Made by a program: the position numbers and the translations under genes. Under the pieces are notes generated by a model that made no database searches, had not been told where the DNA came from, and was given only the letters and a program-made list of their open reading frames with translations. From IMG/VR virus record IMGVR_UViG_2877263951_000003: a stretch of 62,478 nt of DNA. One strand, written 5' to 3'. Below, in pieces: positions 4,801 to 36,475 of this stretch. How positions within the stretch are numbered: the first letter of the stretch is position 1; the number at the start of each line of letters is the position of its first letter. Origin of the DNA: a virus. Taxonomy: Duplodnaviria > Heunggongvirae > Uroviricota > Caudoviricetes.

Positions 4801-5637
4801 TGAGGTGTACTGGCAATAGCGGACACTACCATTTGTTCTTTTTTTAAGCAGCTATCTGATGATATTTTTCCCTGAAGGCTGCCGGGGAGATATTCCCCAG
4901 ACGAGAGTGACGACGCTGACGATTGTAGAAAATCTCAATGTATTCCCGTATTACTGAGATGGCTTCATCCCGGTTATTAAAACGATAGTGGCTCAGGCTC
5001 TCATTTTTCAGCGTTCCCCAGAAGCTTTCCATCGGAGCGTTGTCGTAACAGTTACCTTTACGCGACATTGATGTTTTCAGACCAGACTGCTCCTGTATGA
5101 CCCGGTAATCGTATGCGCAGTACTGTGAACCTCGATCAGAGTGGTGGATTAGCCCGGCAGGTGGGCGCTGGCTCCTGAGCGCCATAAACAGGGCTTTACC
5201 TGTCAGCTCTTTTGTCATGCGCTCTCCCATGGCGTAGCCGACAATTTCGCACGTATAAACATCTTTGATGCCAGCAACATACGTCAGGTCCGCCACCCAG
5301 ACCTGATTTGGTGCTGTAGGAGCGAACGTCTGGTTCAGCAGATTTGGCGCAACTGGCAGATTGTGGTTCGGGTTCGTAGTCGCTCTGAACTTGCGTTTCT
5401 GCTTACAGCGTAGCCTCAGCTCCTTACGAAGACGTGCCAGTCGGTCACGACCAACGATGATGCCATTCTCTGCCAGCTCCGTCTGGAGCCGCCGGGTTCC
5501 ATATGTTTCGCGAGTGCGGATATGTGCCACCTTAATCTCCAGTTTTAGCCGCTCATCACTTTGTTTGAAGTGGCACACTGAATTTGGCCACCTGAACAGA
5601 GGTGATATGCTCACCTCAGAACAACACAGGTGCTCCA

Positions 5638-6806
<1,169 letters not shown>

Positions 6807-6922
6807 CCACTTCAGTTTTCTGTCTGAGGGTTCATGCTGTACCCAGTTGTAATAACCGCTCCTGGATACACCAAATACCTGACACATCGCTTCAATGGGA
6901 AATTGTTGTCGCCATTGTTCGA

Positions 6923-7225
6923 TTAACGCGTATTTTTCAGCGACTCCTGTGCAAAATACGCTGTTGCTTTTTTTAATATATCTCGCTCAAGGCGAGCTTC
7001 ATTTAACGCCTTACGCAGTTGCAGAATTTCAGATTCCAGTTCAGCCACCGTGCGGGAACCAGGAGTACCGAGCCCTTTTCTGGCGGCGGTAACCCATTGT
7101 CCTAAAGTGCCTTCAGGAAGGGATAATCGGGAAGCGCCTTCACTGATCGAAAGTTGATTTTCAAGAACCGTTCTGACAGCTTCGGCTTTGAACTCTTTAG
7201 AGTAACGTTGGGTTTTTCTGCTCAT
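6923..7225 (-). CDS. IS600 OrfA (copy B), 100 aa
   Basis: MSRKTQRYSKEFKAEAVRTVLENQLSISEGASRLSLPEGTLGQWV... intact. Confidence 0.85.
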   Translation of the reverse strand: MSRKTQRYSKEFKAEAVRTVLENQLSISEGASRLSLPEGTLGQWVTAARKGLGTPGSRTVAELESEILQLRKALNEARLERDILKKATAYFAQESLKNTR

Positions 7226-7738: not shown

Positions 7739-8293
7739 TTATTTTAAAGAAAGTAATTGTTCCACAGTCATATTTTTAATTGCGCCCCGGTTAACAAGAG
7801 TCCATCCCTGTTTTTCCAGATAAAACCGGAAAGTCTCCAGGGTACAGACCAGTGCGCCATCAGGAACGGTTTCGGTGAATTCGACATTGCCGAATTTGTC
7901 GAAGTGAACAACCAGAGTGCGACCATCACCCGGAATCATCTTGTCAGCAGGTGGGGTGTTATTCTGGCGCAGTTCGGCCTCCATGCGGTCGAACTCAGCA
8001 ATGTAGGCTTCCTTGAATGCGGCGGCTTTTTTGCCAGTGAAGCCCATCACCAGGAAAACGAAGCCGTTTTTGGTGATTTGGTACATTGGGCGTTTTTCGC
8101 CTTTGGCGTCGGTATAGGTGACGGGCTTAAAATTAAGCCGGTTAAACTCCGGCGAGCATTCGAGAGTTTCGATCTTCTGAATAACGTTTTTGTGCATTTT
8201 CCGGAAGAACTCCGCAACCGCAACAGACGTAGTGACAGCGCGACCATTTTCGATGGTTGCGTCAGGGTGAGAAAGGGTAAGGATAGTAGCCAT
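7739..8293 (-). CDS. Phage regulatory protein, Rha family (antirepressor-like)
   Basis: MATILTLSHPDATIENGRAVTTSVAVAEFFRKMHKNVIQKI ... ITKNGFVFLVMGFTGKKAAAFKEAYIAEFDRME. The supplied 318-aa ORF 7739..8695 runs on upstream through a terminator and a structured element; the start is taken at the ATG at 8291..8293. Confidence 0.7.
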   Translation of the reverse strand: MATILTLSHPDATIENGRAVTTSVAVAEFFRKMHKNVIQKIETLECSPEFNRLNFKPVTYTDAKGEKRPMYQITKNGFVFLVMGFTGKKAAAFKEAYIAEFDRMEAELRQNNTPPADKMIPGDGRTLVVHFDKFGNVEFTETVPDGALVCTLETFRFYLEKQGWTLVNRGAIKNMTVEQLLSLK

Positions 8294-8350
8294 GATGGCA
8301 GCCTCGATAGTCAGTTTAAATGACTCACCACCAGAGGTAGCAATCTCATG

Positions 8351-8429
8351 GGTGGTGAGACGCACAGGGTTGCTACAACCGGTGACTACCGAAACCGGCC
8401 AGCCTTGCGGCTGCCCTGCACGCCCCACC
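8351..8429 (-). ncRNA. Candidate structured RNA element upstream of rha (paralog of 22900..22978)
   Basis: 16-bp closing stem GGUGGGGCGUGCAGGG / CCCUGUGCGUCUCACC (4 G-U pairs) enclosing a GCAA-loop hairpin (CAGCC/GGCTG) and a CCGG-12nt-CCGG hairpin; same architecture with compensatory changes in the second copy. Confidence 0.4.
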
Positions 8430-8457
8430 ATAATCTGAATGTGGCTGTGCTTGACGC

Positions 8458-8484
8458 ATAAAAAAACCGCCTGAGCGCGGTTAT
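8458..8484 (-). terminator. Rho-independent terminator immediately upstream of the structured element
   Basis: Minus-strand AACCGC-GCTCAG-GCGGTT followed by TTTTTTT; conserved at 22846..22868. Confidence 0.55.
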
Positions 8485-9134
8485 GCGCAGTAGTCATCGT
8501 CGGGGTAGCAATCCCGGCACCCGTTTTATGAGGTGCAGGTGCACTATAATTCCACCCGTTCTGGTTTTCAATAGCTACATTCAACATTTTCTCTTTCCTT
8601 TCATCACCGAAGTGAACTTTGTTGATGCGGTGCCTGGTGCCTCCAGGTGACGTTAACCAGTTAACAATTACAGTTGGCTTTCCCACCCAAACCAATAAGG
8701 ACTAACATGACTTTTAACTGTGCCGCGTGCGCATAGCCGCATTCACCGCATCACAAAATTCACTTTAAAAAGGGCGGACATCAGCCAGCAATTAAACCGA
8801 TGCCGCCAACTGGTACTTCACACAGCAATGTCGTTATTTACAACCGGAAGCGCACTCCCACCATTTAAATTTCACAGACAAGACCGACTCTTTATGGATA
8901 CCGGAAATGCGCCTTCGTGTTGTGCCCGGTTTTATTTCACCACTTCCGGGCTTTGGTGGTATCTTTACTGAAGTTCTCACACAACCAGTAAGGAAATGAA
9001 TATGCCAACGTATCTCGCCAGAGTAGAACTATATAATGCTGAGTAGACTGGCCCCCTGAATCTCCAGACAACCAGTATCACTTATTTAAGTGATAGTCTT
9101 AATACTAGTTTTTAGACTAGTCATTGGAGAACAG

Positions 9135-9500
9135 ATGATTGATGTCTTAGGGCCGGAGAAACGCAGACGGCGTACCACACAGGAAAAGATCGCAATTGTT
9201 CAGCAGAGCTTTGAACCGGGGATGACGGTCTCCCTCGTTGCCCGGCAACATGGTGTAGCAGCCAGCCAGTTATTTCTCTGGCGTAAGCAATACCAGGAAG
9301 GAAGTCTTACTGCTGTGGCCGCCGGAGAACAGGTTGTTCCTGCCTCTGAACTTGCTGCCGCCATGAAGCAGATTAAAGAACTCCAGCGCCTGCTCGGCAA
9401 GAAAACGATGGAAAATGAACTCCTCAAAGAAGCCGTTGAATATGGACGGGCAAAAAAGTGGATAGCGCACGCGCCCTTATTGCCCGGGGATGGGGAGTAA
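9135..9500 (+). CDS. insC: IS2 OrfA (InsC-like)
   Basis: [56 protein letters not shown]... Confidence 0.85.
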
Positions 9501-10363
9501 GCTTAGTCAGCCGTTGTCTCCGGGTGTCGCGTGCGCAGTTGCACGTCATTCTCAGACGAACCGATGACTGGATGGATGGCCGCCGCAGTCGTCACACTGA
9601 TGATACGGATGTGCTTCTCCGTATACACCATGTTATCGGAGAGCTGCCCACGTATGGTTATCGTCGGGTATGGGCGCTGCTTCGCAGACAGGCAGAACTT
9701 GATGGTATGCCTGCGATCAATGCCAAACGTGTTTACCGGCTCATGCGCCAGAATGCGCTGTTGCTTGAGCGAAAACCTGCTGTACCGCCATCGAAACGGG
9801 CACATACAGGCAGAGTGGCCGTGAAAGAAAGCAATCAGCGATGGTGCTCTGACGGGTTCGAGTTCTGCTGTGATAACGGAGAGAGACTGCGTGTCACGTT
9901 CGCGCTGGACTGCTGTGATCGTGAGGCACTGCACTGGGCGGTGACTACCGGCGGCTTCAACAGTGAAACAGTACAGGACGTCATGCTGGGAGCGGTGGAA
10001 CGCCGCTTCGGCAACGATCTTCCGTCGTCTCCAGTGGAGTGGCTGACGGATAATGGTTCATGCTACCGGGCTAATGAAACACGCCAGTTCGCCCGGATGT
10101 TGGGACTTGAACCGAAGAACACGGCGGTGCGGAGTCCGGAGAGTAACGGAATAGCATAGAGCTTCGTGAAAACGATAAAGCGTGACTACATCAGTATCAT
10201 GCCCAAACCAGACGGGTTAACGGCAGCAAAGAACCTTGCAGAGGCGTTCGAGCATTATAACGAATGGCATCCGCATAGTGCGCTGGGTTATCGCTCGCCA
10301 CGGGAATATCTGCGGCAGCGGGCTTGTAATGGGTTAAGTGATAACAGATGTCTGGAAATATAG
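9458..10363 (+). pseudogene. insD: IS2 orfB (InsD-like) with in-frame amber codon at 10157..10159
   Basis: Frame stops at ...[12 protein letters not shown] and continues [19 protein letters not shown]... to 10363; the canonical IS2 sequence I recall has GAG here. Confidence 0.75.
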
Positions 10364-10604
10364 GGGCAAATCCACTGAGCCAGAGGATTACGAAGGGCTT
10401 CATAAATATATGCTCTCACTAGGATTCAGGAGAACGATCCCCCATGGAGATGGTTCGTATAATCAACTCCCGGACGGAACTTATGTTTCCGAAAAGGGCG
10501 GTGATATTTATCAAATTCGCAGCCAGATATCTGACTATGCAGACCGACTATCCGGGTATCGCGCGTCTGTTTTTGTTTGCGAATTCAGTCAATGCGCATG
10601 GTAT

Positions 10605-15583: not shown

Positions 15584-15810
15584 TTTTATGGGGCACCTTT
15601 CTGATTGATTTCATATTGGCGAGGTAAGTAGAATGACTGCGGGTGCTTGAGGCTATCTGCTTCAGGCATGAACACCAAAAGGCAGATAGAGAAAAGCCCC
15701 AGTTAACATTACGCGTCCGGCAAGACGCTTAACATTAATCTGAGGCCAATTTCATGCTTTGCACATGTAGGTTAGCCTCTTACATGCCGAAAGGCAAGGA
15801 GAAGCAGGCT

Positions 15811-15966
15811 ATGAAGCAGCAAAAGGCGATGTTAATCGCCCTGATCGTCATCTGTTTAACCGTCATAGTGACGGCACTGGTAACGAGGAAAGACCTCTGT
15901 GAGGTACGAATCCGAACCGGCCAGACGGAGGTCGCTGTCTTCGTAGACTACGAATCCAGGAAGTAA
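15811..15966 (+). CDS. Hok/Gef-family membrane toxin (type I toxin)
   Basis: MKQQKAMLIALIVICLTVIVTALVTRKDLCEVRIRTGQTEVAVFVDYESRK; overlapping upstream mok-like leader frame from 15754; stem-loop-rich leader. Confidence 0.75.
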   Translation: MKQQKAMLIALIVICLTVIVTALVTRKDLCEVRIRTGQTEVAVFVDYESRK

Positions 15967-18854: not shown

Positions 18855-20023
<1,169 letters not shown>

Positions 20024-22089: not shown

Positions 22090-22398
22090 TTAAACGAAGC
22101 GGATCTGGAGTTTTTTTCCAGTAGCGCGGGCGAATTTTTTTAGTGTGGCAAATGATGGGCCGCTGATACCTGATGCGAGATTACTTTCCATTCTGGTGAT
22201 CGCGGTCGCTTTTGTTCCCATTCGCTCGGCAACTTCAGCCTGAGTTAAGCCAGCTTCTTTGCGTGCTGCCAGCATTTCATCAAGCAGTGCGAATTCGTCA
22301 GCGATAGCGTCGTATTCTGCTTTAAAAGCCGGGTCTTCCATCCATTTGGCTGCCATTTCGTCGTGTGTCATGGTGGGGAGAGTGCGTTTACCAGTCAT
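22090..22398 (-). CDS. HigA-like antitoxin, XRE-family HTH
   Basis: ...AGLTQAEVAERMGTKATAITRMESNLASGISGPSFATLKKFARATGKKL; start overlaps the toxin gene's 3' end. Confidence 0.65.
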   Translation of the reverse strand: MTGKRTLPTMTHDEMAAKWMEDPAFKAEYDAIADEFALLDEMLAARKEAGLTQAEVAERMGTKATAITRMESNLASGISGPSFATLKKFARATGKKLQIRFV

Positions 22399-22716
22399 GC
22401 TTAACCTCCTTCATTCTGGTTTCAGCTTTCTTGCGTTCGGCTGGCGGTGTTTTCTGCGCTTTCTTTACAAAACTATGCAGCATGATGATGCGTTTCCCTG
22501 TCAGAGTGCAGTAAAAAACACGCGCGATCCCATCGTTGCCTTTAATTCTGAGTTCGAAAAGCCCGTCACCAAAGGCGCTGGTGTGAGGTTCTCCGAGATT
22601 GCTGCCGTATACCTTCATGCGTTCAACAAGATGCTGGTATCTGGCACGCATACTCAATGGAAGCTGATCGACCTCCAGTCGGACCTCTTCACTGTAGTAT
22701 TCGATAGTGTAGTTCA
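22388..22716 (-). CDS. RelE/HigB-superfamily toxin (gp49-like)
   Basis: MNYTIEYYSEEVRLEVDQLPLSMRARYQHLVERMKVYGSNLGEPHTSAFGDGLFELRIKGNDGIARVFYCTLTGKRIIMLHSFVKKAQKTP; toxin-then-antitoxin order as in higBA. Confidence 0.65.
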
Positions 22717-22845
22717 TACAGCAAAACATAACAAAATCGTTATATCTGCACAATATATTGATTCTGCAATTTCGGGACGTTACACTGTCTCTGCACCTTA
22801 TAAAGCGGGGGCCGGGATTGGCGTCCTGAAATTCAATATAGAGCA

Positions 22846-22868
22846 TAACCGCGCTCATGCGGTTTTTT
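22846..22868 (+). terminator. Rho-independent terminator upstream of the structured element and rha
   Basis: AACCGC-GCTCAT-GCGGTT followed by TTTTTT; paralog at 8458..8484. Confidence 0.55.
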
Positions 22869-22899
22869 CGTGTCATGAGCATTGCTACGCCCAAATTAT

Positions 22900-22978
22900 G
22901 GTGGGGCGTGCAGGGACATCGCAAGATGCGCCGGGTTCTATGTTGACCGGTTACGCCAACCCTGTACGTCTCACCACC
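22900..22978 (+). ncRNA. Candidate structured RNA element upstream of rha
   Basis: Closing stem 22900..22915 (GGTGGGGCGTGCAGGG) with 22960..22975 (CCCTGTACGTCTCACC); GCAA-loop hairpin CATC/GATG at 22917..22928; CCGG-12nt-CCGG hairpin at 22931..22950; stems differ from the paralog at 8351..8429 by compensatory changes. Confidence 0.4.
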
Positions 22979-23035
22979 TCTGTGATTGGCGTCCCATGTG
23001 GTGAGTTCTTTGAATTCAACATAGGGGCTGTCACC

Positions 23036-23599
23036 ATGACTACTCTCCCAACCCTCTCTCAACCTGAAATTGCCATCGTTGATGGTTAGGCTGTTACTTC
23101 ATCCCTGGCTGTTGCCAACTTCTTCTCTAAACGTCATGACGATGTTCTGAAAAAGATCCGCATTTTGGATTGTTCTCCAGAGTTTTGTGCCCGCAATTTT
23201 GCGGAGACATCAATTTTGGTACGCCAGCCCAACGGCGGTACTCGCAAACTTCCCTGCTACCAAATTACCCGCGGCGGCTTCGCCTTCCTTGCTATGGGCT
23301 TCACTGGTAAACGTGCCGCCCGGTTCAAAGAGGCATACATCAATGCCTTTAACCAGATGGAGAGGAGCTTATCAGGAGCTGGTGCGGCTGACATGTCATC
23401 TGTCGCACAAAACGCCAGAGGCGTATACCTGCATTTGCGTGAAATCCATCAAATCTGGACAAGCCAGCTTTACCCAATGCTTAAGGCCGTTGAATCTCCG
23501 CTGGCTGGCAAACTGTACGACCGTGTAGGTGATGCTGTTTTTGGTGCTGCACTTGTTGATTCCAGGCTGAATGGTTCTGACAAGGAGGTGCGCCCATGA
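23036..23599 (+). pseudogene. Rha-family regulatory protein with in-frame amber codon at 23087..23089
   Basis: MTTLPTLSQPEIAIVDG-TAG-AVTSSLAVANFFSKRHDDVLKKIRILDCSPEF...ITRGGFAFLAMGFTGKRAARFKEAYINAFNQME; the other rha copy has CGC (Arg) at this position. Confidence 0.65.
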
Positions 23600-28122: not shown

Positions 28123-28199
28123 GGCCCTTTAGCTCAGTTGGTCAGAGCGAGCGACTCATAATCGCCAGGTCGCTGGTTCAAGTCCAGCAAGGGCCACCA
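28123..28199 (+). tRNA. tRNA-Ile2-like (anticodon CAT; Met-type anticodon, Ile2 by similarity to ileX/ileZ)
   Basis: Cloverleaf: acceptor GGCCCTT/AAGGGCC, D-stem GCTC/GAGC, anticodon loop CTCATAA, T-stem GCTGG/CCAGC, encoded CCA. Confidence 0.8.
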
Positions 28200-28200
28200 A

Positions 28201-28277
28201 CCACCACTAGCTCATCCGGATAGAGCATCAACCTTCTAAGTTGACGGTGCGAGGTTCGAGTCCTCGGTGGTGGGCCA
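28201..28277 (+). tRNA. tRNA-Arg (anticodon TCT)
   Basis: Acceptor CCACCAC/GTGGTGG, anticodon stem TCAAC/GTTGA, loop CTTCTAA, T-loop TTCGAGT, encoded CCA. Confidence 0.75.
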
Positions 28278-28279
28278 GC

Positions 28280-28355
<76 letters not shown>

Positions 28356-28358
28356 TAT

Positions 28359-28433
<75 letters not shown>

Positions 28434-35388: not shown

Positions 35389-36148
<760 letters not shown>

Positions 36149-36152
<4 letters not shown>

Positions 36153-36475
36153 TTTTTCCAGAGGCGGTCGAACTCCGCCTTCGCAAAATAAGCGGAAGCC
36201 TGGCGAAGGATATCGTTACTGCGGCGCAGTTCACGATTTTCACGCTCCGGCTCTTTCAGACGCTGACGTTCAGCGGTGGTGAGCCCTCCATCACCGCCCC
36301 CGGTATCCCGCTCATGCTGGCGACCCCAGACACGCAGAGTCTCCGGCGTACAGCCAATCTTTGGAGCAATGGAACAAATTGTCGCCCATTGTGAGTCATA
36401 TTCGCCCTGACTTTCCAGAACCATACGGACTGCCCGTTGACGGACTTCGGGGGAAAAACGAGTATTTTTAGTCAT
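36149..36475 (-). CDS. IS629-like OrfA
   Basis: [50 protein letters not shown]... Confidence 0.8.

Follow-up and report, generated by a model that had tools for sequence, protein, structure and literature searches.

Two rha genes lie in the window, by which we mean the whole 62,478-nt stretch of DNA that was analysed, and each is preceded by the same arrangement of RNA features. The module of copy A is on the plus strand and that of copy B is on the minus strand, placing the two in opposite orientation. In both, the order is promoter, IsrK homologue, a spacer of about 30 nt, C4 antisense RNA, target sites and rha, and a pairwise alignment showed that the modules of about 330 nt are 82% identical. 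The rha gene of copy B (7739..8293, minus strand) is intact, encoding 184 amino acids with a Phage_pRha match of 108.1 bits in Pfam. The rha gene of copy A (23036..23599, plus strand) carries an in-frame TAG at codon 18 (23087-23089), where the E. coli O121 orthologue has CAG, and its Phage_pRha match (91.4 bits) lies downstream of this stop. The original prediction had described a terminator and an element of about 79 nt, at 22846-22978 in copy A, as a module shared by the two rha genes. Both parts are present in the sequence ahead of both genes, and the contents of that interval were described correctly. Three amendments are needed: the two copies occupy opposite strands, one of the two rha genes carries a nonsense codon, and the 5' edge of the unit was misplaced, as the unit begins upstream, with its promoter and RNA start near 22758-22793. 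A search of the window for further or degenerate C4 copies returned none, only weak reverse-strand echoes of copies A and B.

The upstream RNA gene is an IsrK homologue in both copies (Rfam RF01394, gathering score 50), located at 22793..22869 on the plus strand in copy A (58.1 bits) and at 8460..8536 on the minus strand in copy B (61.5 bits). Its 3' end is formed by an intrinsic terminator, which terminator prediction placed at 22847-22864 plus a U run in copy A (plus strand) and at 8482-8465 in copy B (minus strand). A promoter scan identified the isrK promoter of copy B at 8571-8543 on the minus strand (TTGAAA, 17-nt spacer, TATAGT), with 10 of 12 consensus matches. The copy A counterpart, a predicted sigma-70 promoter at 22758..22786 on the plus strand (TTGATT, 17-nt spacer, TACACT), was recognized by eye and aligns with the copy B promoter. 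It is weak, and the scan did not list it because its 8 of 12 matches fall below the scan threshold. The copy A IsrK RNA is predicted to start at G22793 on the plus strand. Both copies show the arrangement that characterizes the IsrK family, namely an RNA of about 77 nt that is bounded by its own promoter and a rho-independent terminator and lies directly upstream of C4 and a gene of putative antirepressor type. Membership in the c4-a1b1 motif (RF03163) was also considered and rejected, with both window copies (17.8 and 18.9 bits) below the gathering score of 46.7; this part of the module is also covered by isrK, the family to which the window leaders are assigned. The 79-nt element had previously been likened to the IsrK RNA of Gifsy-1. 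At the level of the locus this likeness stands, the region being homologous to Gifsy-1 isrK-anrP with the Rfam families in the same order. As an identity for the element itself it fails: IsrK is the adjacent terminator-bearing RNA (22793-22869), and the element is C4.

On sequence grounds, the 79-nt element can be identified as C4, the antisense RNA in the immunity switch of P1, P4 and Gifsy-1. It matches Rfam RF01695 (clan CL00128, gathering score 45) at 22894..22981 on the plus strand in copy A (74.8 bits) and at 8348..8435 on the minus strand in copy B (75.7 bits), with both matches spanning model positions 1-87 and with E-values of about 1e-13. The covariance-model check that had been proposed for this element placed both copies above the gathering scores of RF01695 and RF01394. 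Alignment to the annotated ends of P1 c4 predicts a mature RNA at 22900-22978 (79 nt, plus strand) in copy A and at 8429-8351 (minus strand) in copy B. Both window copies retain the RNase P-type ends AU/GG ... CACC, whose positions were taken from the P1 annotation. The minimum free energy (MFE) fold consists of a 17-bp closing stem, a first hairpin with a GCAA tetraloop and a second hairpin of the form GCCGG-12 nt-CCGGU, followed by a single-stranded linker. The closing stem with two internal hairpins was thus as originally described, except that the stem is 17 bp rather than 16 bp long in the MFE fold. The folds are unusually stable for their composition, at -41.6 kcal/mol in copy A (z = -4.3) and -48.3 kcal/mol in copy B (z = -5.4), and in neither case did any of 200 shuffled sequences fold as well.

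Homologues of the C4 element were collected by a degenerate pattern search of IMG/VR and then with a covariance model built from both window copies, which yielded 89 matches, 65 of them distinct. Among these 65 distinct homologues, 99.0% of the cells at paired positions hold standard pairs, as compared with 79% in shuffles, and double-sided changes occur in 22 of the 27 stem pairs. None of 500 shuffles reached any of the C4 covariation measures, and controls in which the pairing was slid fell to 28-55% paired. The search pattern fixed hairpin 2, and for that reason the invariance of the hairpin-2 stem is an uninformative artefact and was not counted as evidence. The compensatory changes first noticed between the two window copies can be read directly from their alignment: hairpin 1 is closed by CAUC/GAUG in copy A and by CAGCC/GGCUG in copy B, fully compensated, and the closing-stem difference of U-A versus U-G is likewise visible. 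The view that selection here acts on RNA structure and not on a protein is well supported by the covariation in the 65 distinct homologues. Structure arising by chance was also considered, and it is ruled out by the fold z-scores, the Rfam E-values and the covariation.

The antisense sites, which are lettered here (a, b) following P1 nomenclature, had been missed in the earlier reading of this DNA; neither a' and b' nor the two target sets were noticed, although they are the feature that explains the mechanism. In copy A (plus strand), b' is the loop of C4 hairpin 2 (22935-22946), and a' is the linker after hairpin 2 (22952-22962), which reads ACGCCAA. One target set lies upstream in the IsrK homologue, where a1 (22813-22825, CGGGAUUGGCGUC) is predicted to form a duplex of -15.5 kcal/mol with the C4 linker and b1 (22832-22845, UUCAAUAUAGAGCA) a duplex of -15.1 kcal/mol with the C4 loop. 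The other lies downstream of C4. Here a2 (22985..22993, AUUGGCGUC) is complementary to the C4 linker (-10.3 kcal/mol) and sits at a conserved offset after C4, in the same position as the annotated a2 of P1, while b2 (23015..23027, UUCAACAUAGGGG) is complementary to the hairpin-2 loop (-12.1 kcal/mol) and overlaps the rha Shine-Dalgarno sequence (GGGG). In copy B (minus strand), C4 carries the b' loop UUUCGGUAGUCA and the a' linker UGUAGCAACCC, which reads GUAGCAA, and IsrK carries a1 GGGAUUGCUACC and b1 UGACUACU; the duplex of the C4 linker with IsrK is predicted at -14.0 kcal/mol. Downstream, a2 is found at 8344-8336 (AUUGCUACC, -8.8 kcal/mol) and b2 at 8314-8301 (CUGACUAUCGAGGC, -14.4 kcal/mol), the latter over the rha Shine-Dalgarno sequence (GAGG). 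Both elements have the defining layout of the C4 family, with a' and b' complementary to downstream a2 and b2 and a second target set, a1 and b1, upstream. This family membership, together with the complementarity to the rha ribosome-binding site, supports the original suggestion that the element is an sRNA or a leader that would control rha.

Comparison among loci indicates that these complementarities are locus-specific. In a set of 59 distinct loop/linker combinations, loops gave a mean of -14.5 kcal/mol when paired with the downstream region of the same locus and -7.9 kcal/mol when paired with those of other loci; for the upstream region, the values were -13.0 and -8.5 kcal/mol. Linkers behaved similarly toward their own upstream region (-14.1 versus -9.7 kcal/mol). 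The contrast was small for linkers and the downstream region (-9.7 versus -8.1 kcal/mol), because the a'-a2 duplex is just 7 bp long and the a' sequence ACGCCAA is common to many loci. Cognate duplexes occur at fixed offsets after C4, whereas pairing copy A with copy B gives weaker cross duplexes whose positions are unrelated. The sites a'/a1/a2 and b'/b1/b2 differ between copies A and B in step and, therefore, each C4 should control only its own rha. This implies that the two copies would represent two separate specificities, like those of the heteroimmune phages P1 and P7.

Taken together, these analyses suggest that each rha gene is preceded by a complete IsrK-C4 antisense immunity module as found in P1/P7 (a1b1-c4-a2b2-icd-ant), P4 (seqA-CI-seqC) and Gifsy-1 (isrK-orf45-anrP), a reading to which we assign a probability of roughly 0.87. 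We predict that the promoter fires at about position 22793 in copy A and 8536 in copy B, and that most transcripts would end at the intrinsic terminator to give the IsrK RNA of about 77 nt. Transcripts that read through the terminator would carry C4 and the rha leader. By analogy with P1 and P4, C4 would then be excised as an RNA of about 79 nt, with RNase P cutting at AU/GG and a 3' end at ...CACC. Through b' and a' the RNA would pair with a2 and b2, and rha translation would be blocked in trans or, as long as the leader is unprocessed, in cis. Since IsrK carries the same two target sequences (a1 and b1), it could compete for C4 and act as an activator, as in Gifsy-1. Processing, repression, antagonism by IsrK and a role of Rha as an antirepressor-type regulator are likely, judging from what is known of P1, P4 and Gifsy-1.

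Whether the modules still work in this genome is a separate question. Both copies could be inert, lying in decaying prophage remnants riddled with IS elements and exerting no regulation at present. In favor of such relics, the module of copy A is 99% identical to one in E. coli O121 (4 of 346 positions differ). One of the differences is a SNP in the promoter spacer; the other three are damaging, namely a SNP at 22810 that disrupts a stem pair of IsrK, a SNP at 22916 that disrupts the first pair of C4 hairpin 1, and the CAG to TAG change in rha. Copy A is probably nonfunctional and looks decayed, based on the nonsense codon in rha and the two pair-breaking SNPs relative to E. coli O121. Copy B is hemmed in on both sides by IS elements (about 4844-7225 and 9090-10400), but its stems, its 10/12 promoter, its cognate target sites and its 184-aa rha are all intact. 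We consider it less likely than not that both copies are relics. In any case, inertness concerns present activity and not identity, and it is compatible with each rha being preceded by an IsrK-C4 module.

The leader itself has properties that could allow regulation without a separate antisense RNA. In copy A, the 3' strand of the C4 closing stem (22970-22977, CUCACCAC, plus strand) can pair with a downstream sequence (22998..23005, GUGGUGAG, plus strand); in copy B, the corresponding partner is GGUGGUGAG, within 8301..8344 on the minus strand. This alternative helix excludes the C4 fold. Among 46 distinct homologues, 88.3% of its cells are paired versus 31-58% when the partner is slid, and swaps among CG, UA and GC pairs are seen. 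For copy B, two nearly isoenergetic states of the leader were predicted, one with the C4 fold (-106.3 kcal/mol) and one with the alternative helix together with b' paired to b2 in cis (-106.4 kcal/mol); the MFE fold of the leader contains the b'-b2 pairing. In the leader ensemble, pairing of the Shine-Dalgarno sequence predominates, with unpaired probabilities of 0.14 and 0.21 in the two copies. By joining the 3' strand of the C4 stem to the conserved downstream GGUGGUGAG, the alternative helix would render the leader bistable. From this it could be argued that the element is a purely cis-acting leader, a structural switch or attenuator for rha, and that lambdoid prophages make no processed, trans-acting C4. 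The predicted bistability, the b'-b2 pairing in cis that hides the Shine-Dalgarno sequence and the covariation of the alternative helix are all in keeping with such a leader, as is the study of Gifsy-1, which explained regulation largely by alternative structures of the long transcript (PMC4825925). However, the same study detected a stable, processed RNA, STnc1160, downstream of IsrK, and found it to depend on the isrK promoter (PMC4825925). In addition, the P1 annotation treats c4 as a discrete RNA of 77 nt, the RNase P-type ends are conserved in the window copies, and tandem arrays of modules with different specificities are more easily explained by action in trans. A leader that works exclusively in cis is therefore improbable, and we favor an IsrK-C4 module in which the bistable leader may be one component.

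A long open reading frame also runs through the module in both copies. In copy B, an ATG upstream of the isrK promoter (8587-8585, minus strand, preceded by AGGA) opens a frame that passes through isrK and C4 into rha, and the ORF list gives this ORF as 7739-8695 on the minus strand. In the window, the frame through C4 runs in phase into rha. Its translation matches Pfam PF10554 (Phage_ASH; cutoff 26) with 74.2 bits in copy B and 49 bits in copy A. RefSeq annotates the orthologous region as one 286-aa Rha family CDS, with CDSs named 'ash family protein' upstream; neither RefSeq nor the phage records annotate an ncRNA over the orthologous region, and in both, CDSs span the module. The frame is kept open to an unexpected degree. 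Between the AUG at the 5' edge of C4 and the downstream start, 2 stop codons were observed in 49 distinct sequences as compared with 39.3 expected from independent columns, while stops in the other two frames of these sequences match expectation (45 versus 49.5 and 98 versus 95.3). The frame is fully open in 47 of the 49 sequences (21 +/- 3 in column shuffles, maximum 31). Through isrK, it is open in 55 of 59 sequences, compared with 6 and 24 for the other frames. An ATG immediately 5' of the isrK promoter recurs among homologues.

What the frame encodes appears not to be conserved as protein. Entropy is nearly flat over the three codon positions (0.79, 0.79 and 0.89), and the compensatory changes in hairpin 1 rewrite the encoded residues (TSQDA, QPQGW, PTSVG, EPKGS). 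As a protein domain, Phage_ASH is recovered by HMM score and lacks the signature of amino-acid selection, and the absence of stop codons is the sole conserved feature of the Ash frame. Phage_ASH also matches the obsolete 'cI' ORF of P4, which contains the Rfam C4 match; P4 epsilon belongs to a different family. The immunity factor of P4 is reported to be the CI RNA (Forti et al. 1995). P1 has an intact C4, yet its frame through C4 ends after 14 codons, in contrast to the window, where the frame is open into rha. Because the substitutions are RNA-like, a promoter and a terminator lie inside the block and the P1 frame is closed, we conclude from these sequence comparisons that the Phage_ASH 'domain' is the translation of the IsrK-C4 RNA module. 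The original prediction had named, as evidence against it, a location inside a conserved coding gene with a codon substitution pattern; an open frame is indeed present, but the codon pattern is absent and an RNA pattern is found in its place. Protein coding as the sole explanation is ruled out by the compensatory changes, the rewriting of residues and the flat codon-position entropy. RNA function and an open frame are compatible, but the frame is no substitute for the RNA function. The idea that the block is simply the N-terminal 'Ash' domain of a longer Ash-Rha protein, with its conservation driven by the protein, can draw on the Pfam scores, the RefSeq and phage annotation and the near-absence of stops, but it is very hard to reconcile with 22 of 27 stem pairs changing on both sides, the near-flat entropy, the internal promoter and terminator, the P1 frame that is shut while C4 is intact and the Phage_ASH match to the old P4 'cI' ORF, and we regard it as highly improbable.

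The openness of the frame nevertheless suggests a second use for the IsrK-C4 module. We tentatively propose, at slightly less than even odds, that in lambdoid prophages this unit of about 280 nt is dual-use, comprising two RNAs and a selected open frame whose translation from an upstream promoter yields an 'Ash'-extended regulator. The frame would begin at the ATG upstream of the isrK promoter, cross both RNAs and continue into the Rha/Bro-type gene. On transcripts that start at an upstream pR-type promoter, ribosomes would traverse and unfold the module, and the 'Ash'-extended regulator would escape antisense control. For the nested eta/kil genes of P4, Forti et al. reportedly proposed in 1999 that translation bypasses antisense control, and the stop-free frame fits this idea. 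It also fits the translation of orf45 in Gifsy-1 (PMC4825925). The stop-free frame through the RNAs bears on how the module might be bypassed in lytic growth. If the dual-use proposal is correct, the Pfam 'Ash domain' would be the translational shadow of an RNA switch and not a protein domain, and thousands of 'ash family protein' annotations would need reinterpretation; a 2022 paper on Stx phages describes the Ash domain without an assigned function (PMC8951638).

An IsrK-C4 switch in front of rha is already known, and the present locus is an ordinary, well-preserved example. Both RNAs are curated in Rfam, studies of P1/P7, P4 and Gifsy-1 have addressed the mechanism, and Barquist et al. (2013) reported IsrK-C4 immunity systems in lambdoid prophages, likening them to those of P4, P1, P7 and N15 (PMC3632133). 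Homologous DNA is also widespread: of 5426 complete E. coli genomes, 1145 contain it, as do 256 phage records. In the literature searched, we found neither a quantification of stop-codon avoidance nor an explicit statement that Phage_ASH and the IsrK-C4 module are the same thing. The locus carries a warning for annotation, as CDSs in RefSeq and phage records ('Rha family', 'ash family protein') span a promoter, a terminator and two RNA genes. It also offers a clean natural case of two apparently orthogonal specificities of one type of antisense switch in a single genome.

Rfam matches to the two RNAs occur in P1, P4 and Gifsy-1 with the order and spacing seen in the window. One close annotated parallel is P1, whose record lists promoters, a1, b1, a 77-nt c4 RNA, a2, b2, icd and ant. 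In their immI region, P1 and P7 share the order of the window modules, with a promoter, a1/b1, a hairpin-terminator, a gap of about 66 nt, C4, a2, a target at the ribosome-binding site and a regulator gene. Their C4 has the same three-helix fold, with a 5' end at AU/GGUGGGGCG and a 3' end at CCACC, and in P1/P7 as in the window, specificity resides in one loop and one linker. P1 c4 is known to block translation of ant around the ribosome-binding site (PMC12197685). The systems differ in the controlled gene, as rha (Phage_pRha) directly follows the leader in the window whereas P1 has icd and then ant (ANT/KilAC). They also differ in the host element, which is a lambdoid prophage in the window; P1 is a plasmid prophage and has a C1 operator. 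The upstream piece is classified differently as well: in a Rfam scan, P1 gave C4 at 68.8 bits, c4-a1b1 (RF03163) at 51 bits and, on the same leader, a sub-threshold isrK at 35 bits, whereas the window gives isrK at 58-61 bits and c4-a1b1 at 18-19 bits.

In P4, a Rfam scan placed C4 (74.9 bits) at the position of the CI RNA and isrK (60.8 bits) at that of seqA. In P4, as in the window, the RNA lies within an ORF, which in this phage stops where the next gene (epsilon) begins, and Phage_ASH matches this ORF. The genes that are controlled differ from rha. P4 CI is said, in work by Sabbattini et al. (1995) and Forti et al. (1999), to act mainly via premature transcription termination of the replication operon.

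The isrK-orf45-anrP region of Gifsy-1 resembles the window in both its Rfam matches and their spacing, with isrK (79.3 bits) and then C4 (69 bits) directly upstream of anrP, and with c4-a1b1 at 48.1 bits. Copy A and Gifsy-1 have exactly the same a' linker (ACGCCAA) and the same a1/a2 sequence (GAUUGGCGUC). In Gifsy-1, orf45 starts with the AUG located at the 5' edge of C4, and the second of the targets overlaps the regulator's Shine-Dalgarno sequence, as in the window. The Gifsy-1 C4 is 4 nt shorter and, as a result, orf45 ends with a TGA that overlaps the anrP ATG (ATGA, translational coupling), whereas the window frame continues in phase into rha. The modules are also positioned differently, after the Q gene in Gifsy-1 and before the replication genes in copy A. 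Orthology of AnrP with Rha was rejected, with no significant similarity between Gifsy-1 AnrP, which has an ORF6N domain, and the window Rha; the controlled genes are therefore analogous, not orthologous. Their domains, Phage_pRha in the window, ORF6N in AnrP and ANT in P1 Ant, are those of regulators that belong to the domain-swapping antirepressor 'Bro network' (PMC10111431). For Gifsy-1, Hershko-Shalev et al. (2016, PMC4825925) showed that IsrK, an Hfq-associated sRNA, acts in trans to activate translation of its own read-through transcript; residues C162 and C159, both in the linker region, are the pairing partners of its G28 and G31 (PMC4825925). The published models differ, as C4 is a trans repressor in P1 and IsrK is a trans activator of the orf45-coupled gene in Gifsy-1. 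The C4 elements of the window have their equivalents in the orf45/STnc1160 region of Gifsy-1, the CI RNA of P4 and the c4 RNA of P1.

A stop-free frame was found to run through both isrK-C4 antisense RNA modules of the window, copy A (+) and copy B (-), each of which lies upstream of an rha gene. In the frame that begins with an AUG at the 5′ edge of C4, only two stop codons were observed versus 39 expected (49-59 homologous loci, L001-L082), and the remaining two frames across C4 had stop counts as expected in these loci. The stop-free frame spans 22898-23035 (+) in copy A and 8431-8294 (-) in copy B, and in the window it continues in phase into rha. Upstream of C4, the same frame is open across isrK in 55 of 59 loci, and an ATG (in copy B, 8587-8585) recurs directly ahead of the promoter of isrK. 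When translated, the isrK, C4 and spacer module matched Pfam PF10554 (Phage_ASH) in the two window copies; the matching stretches are 8267-8548 (-) in copy B, with 74.2 bits, and 22783-23065 (+) in copy A, with 49 bits. Phage_ASH is without assigned function according to a 2022 paper on Stx phages (PMC8951638). The obsolete ‘cI’ ORF of satellite phage P4, which contains the CI RNA, also matches PF10554 (L125, 8168-8584, (-)), and P4 epsilon belongs to another Pfam family, PF25738.

Modules of isrK, C4 and regulator also occur in tandem, two or three per locus (L014, L015, L044, L048, L051, L053, L081 and L124), and every tandem module has its own, different combination of loop and linker. The array of E. 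coli O121 (L124, NZ_CP119441) spans 173-2345, with C4 at 328-415, 984-1071 and 1640-1727. In RefSeq, the tandem modules appear as CDSs named ‘ash family protein’ and ‘Rha family’ that overlap, with ATGA at their junctions; ncRNA features are absent.

Further pairings are predicted in the leader, where the C4 loop (b′) and linker (a′) are complementary to targets b2 and a2, respectively. The C4 closing stem can, through its 3′ strand, form an alternative helix with the conserved downstream GGUGGUGAG, and this pairing covaries (22970-22977 with 22998-23005 (+) in copy A; equivalent to about 8359-8352 with 8331-8324 (-) in copy B). The alternative helix and the C4 fold are mutually exclusive, and the former leaves a2 in its loop. 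In the MFE fold of the copy B leader, the alternative helix is combined with b′:b2 pairing in cis. The C4 loop of copy B, GGUAGUCA (8406-8395), could in addition pair with the sequence around the rha start codon of copy A, AUGACUACU (23036-23045; -10.2 kcal/mol), and, with wobbles, with the start region of its own rha, AUGGCUACU (8293-8285); these complementarities may be coincidental.

Copy B is flanked by further IS elements (nested IS3-family; IS2-like orfA/orfB) at 4844-7225 and 9090-10400, and a 279-aa IS3-family transposase ORF is present twice in identical form, at 5967-6806 (+) and 19184-20023 (+). An Rfam match to the ALIL pseudoknot (RF01497, 113 bits), the IS3-family frameshift element, indicates another IS copy at 36078-36194 (-). 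An IS burden this heavy is what one typically sees in E. coli genomes that resemble Shigella or are in decay. A sok antitoxin RNA match (RF01794, 117 bits, Rfam) implies a putative hok/sok-type toxin-antitoxin locus at 15641-15816 (+). Four tRNA genes are clustered within about 310 nt (28123-28430 (+)), roughly 1.1 kb downstream of the copy A prophage's DnaB-like gene.

An E. coli O121 module shares 99% identity with copy A; the four differences lie at 22772, 22810, 22916 and 23087. Three of these differences are damaging, namely a mismatch in the IsrK stem, a G-to-A mismatch in C4 hairpin 1 and a CAG-to-TAG change in rha, which suggests from sequence comparison that copy A is undergoing pseudogenisation. 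Divergently transcribed relative to copy A are a Gp49-like ORF (HigB/RelE-type, PF05973) and an HTH_3 (HigA-like) ORF (22090-22717 (-)). Homology to the E. coli O121 orthologue begins only at 22755, suggesting a putative recombination junction at the copy A isrK promoter. Where the window has the Gp49-like and HTH_3 ORFs, the E. coli O121 orthologue instead carries further ash/Bro modules.
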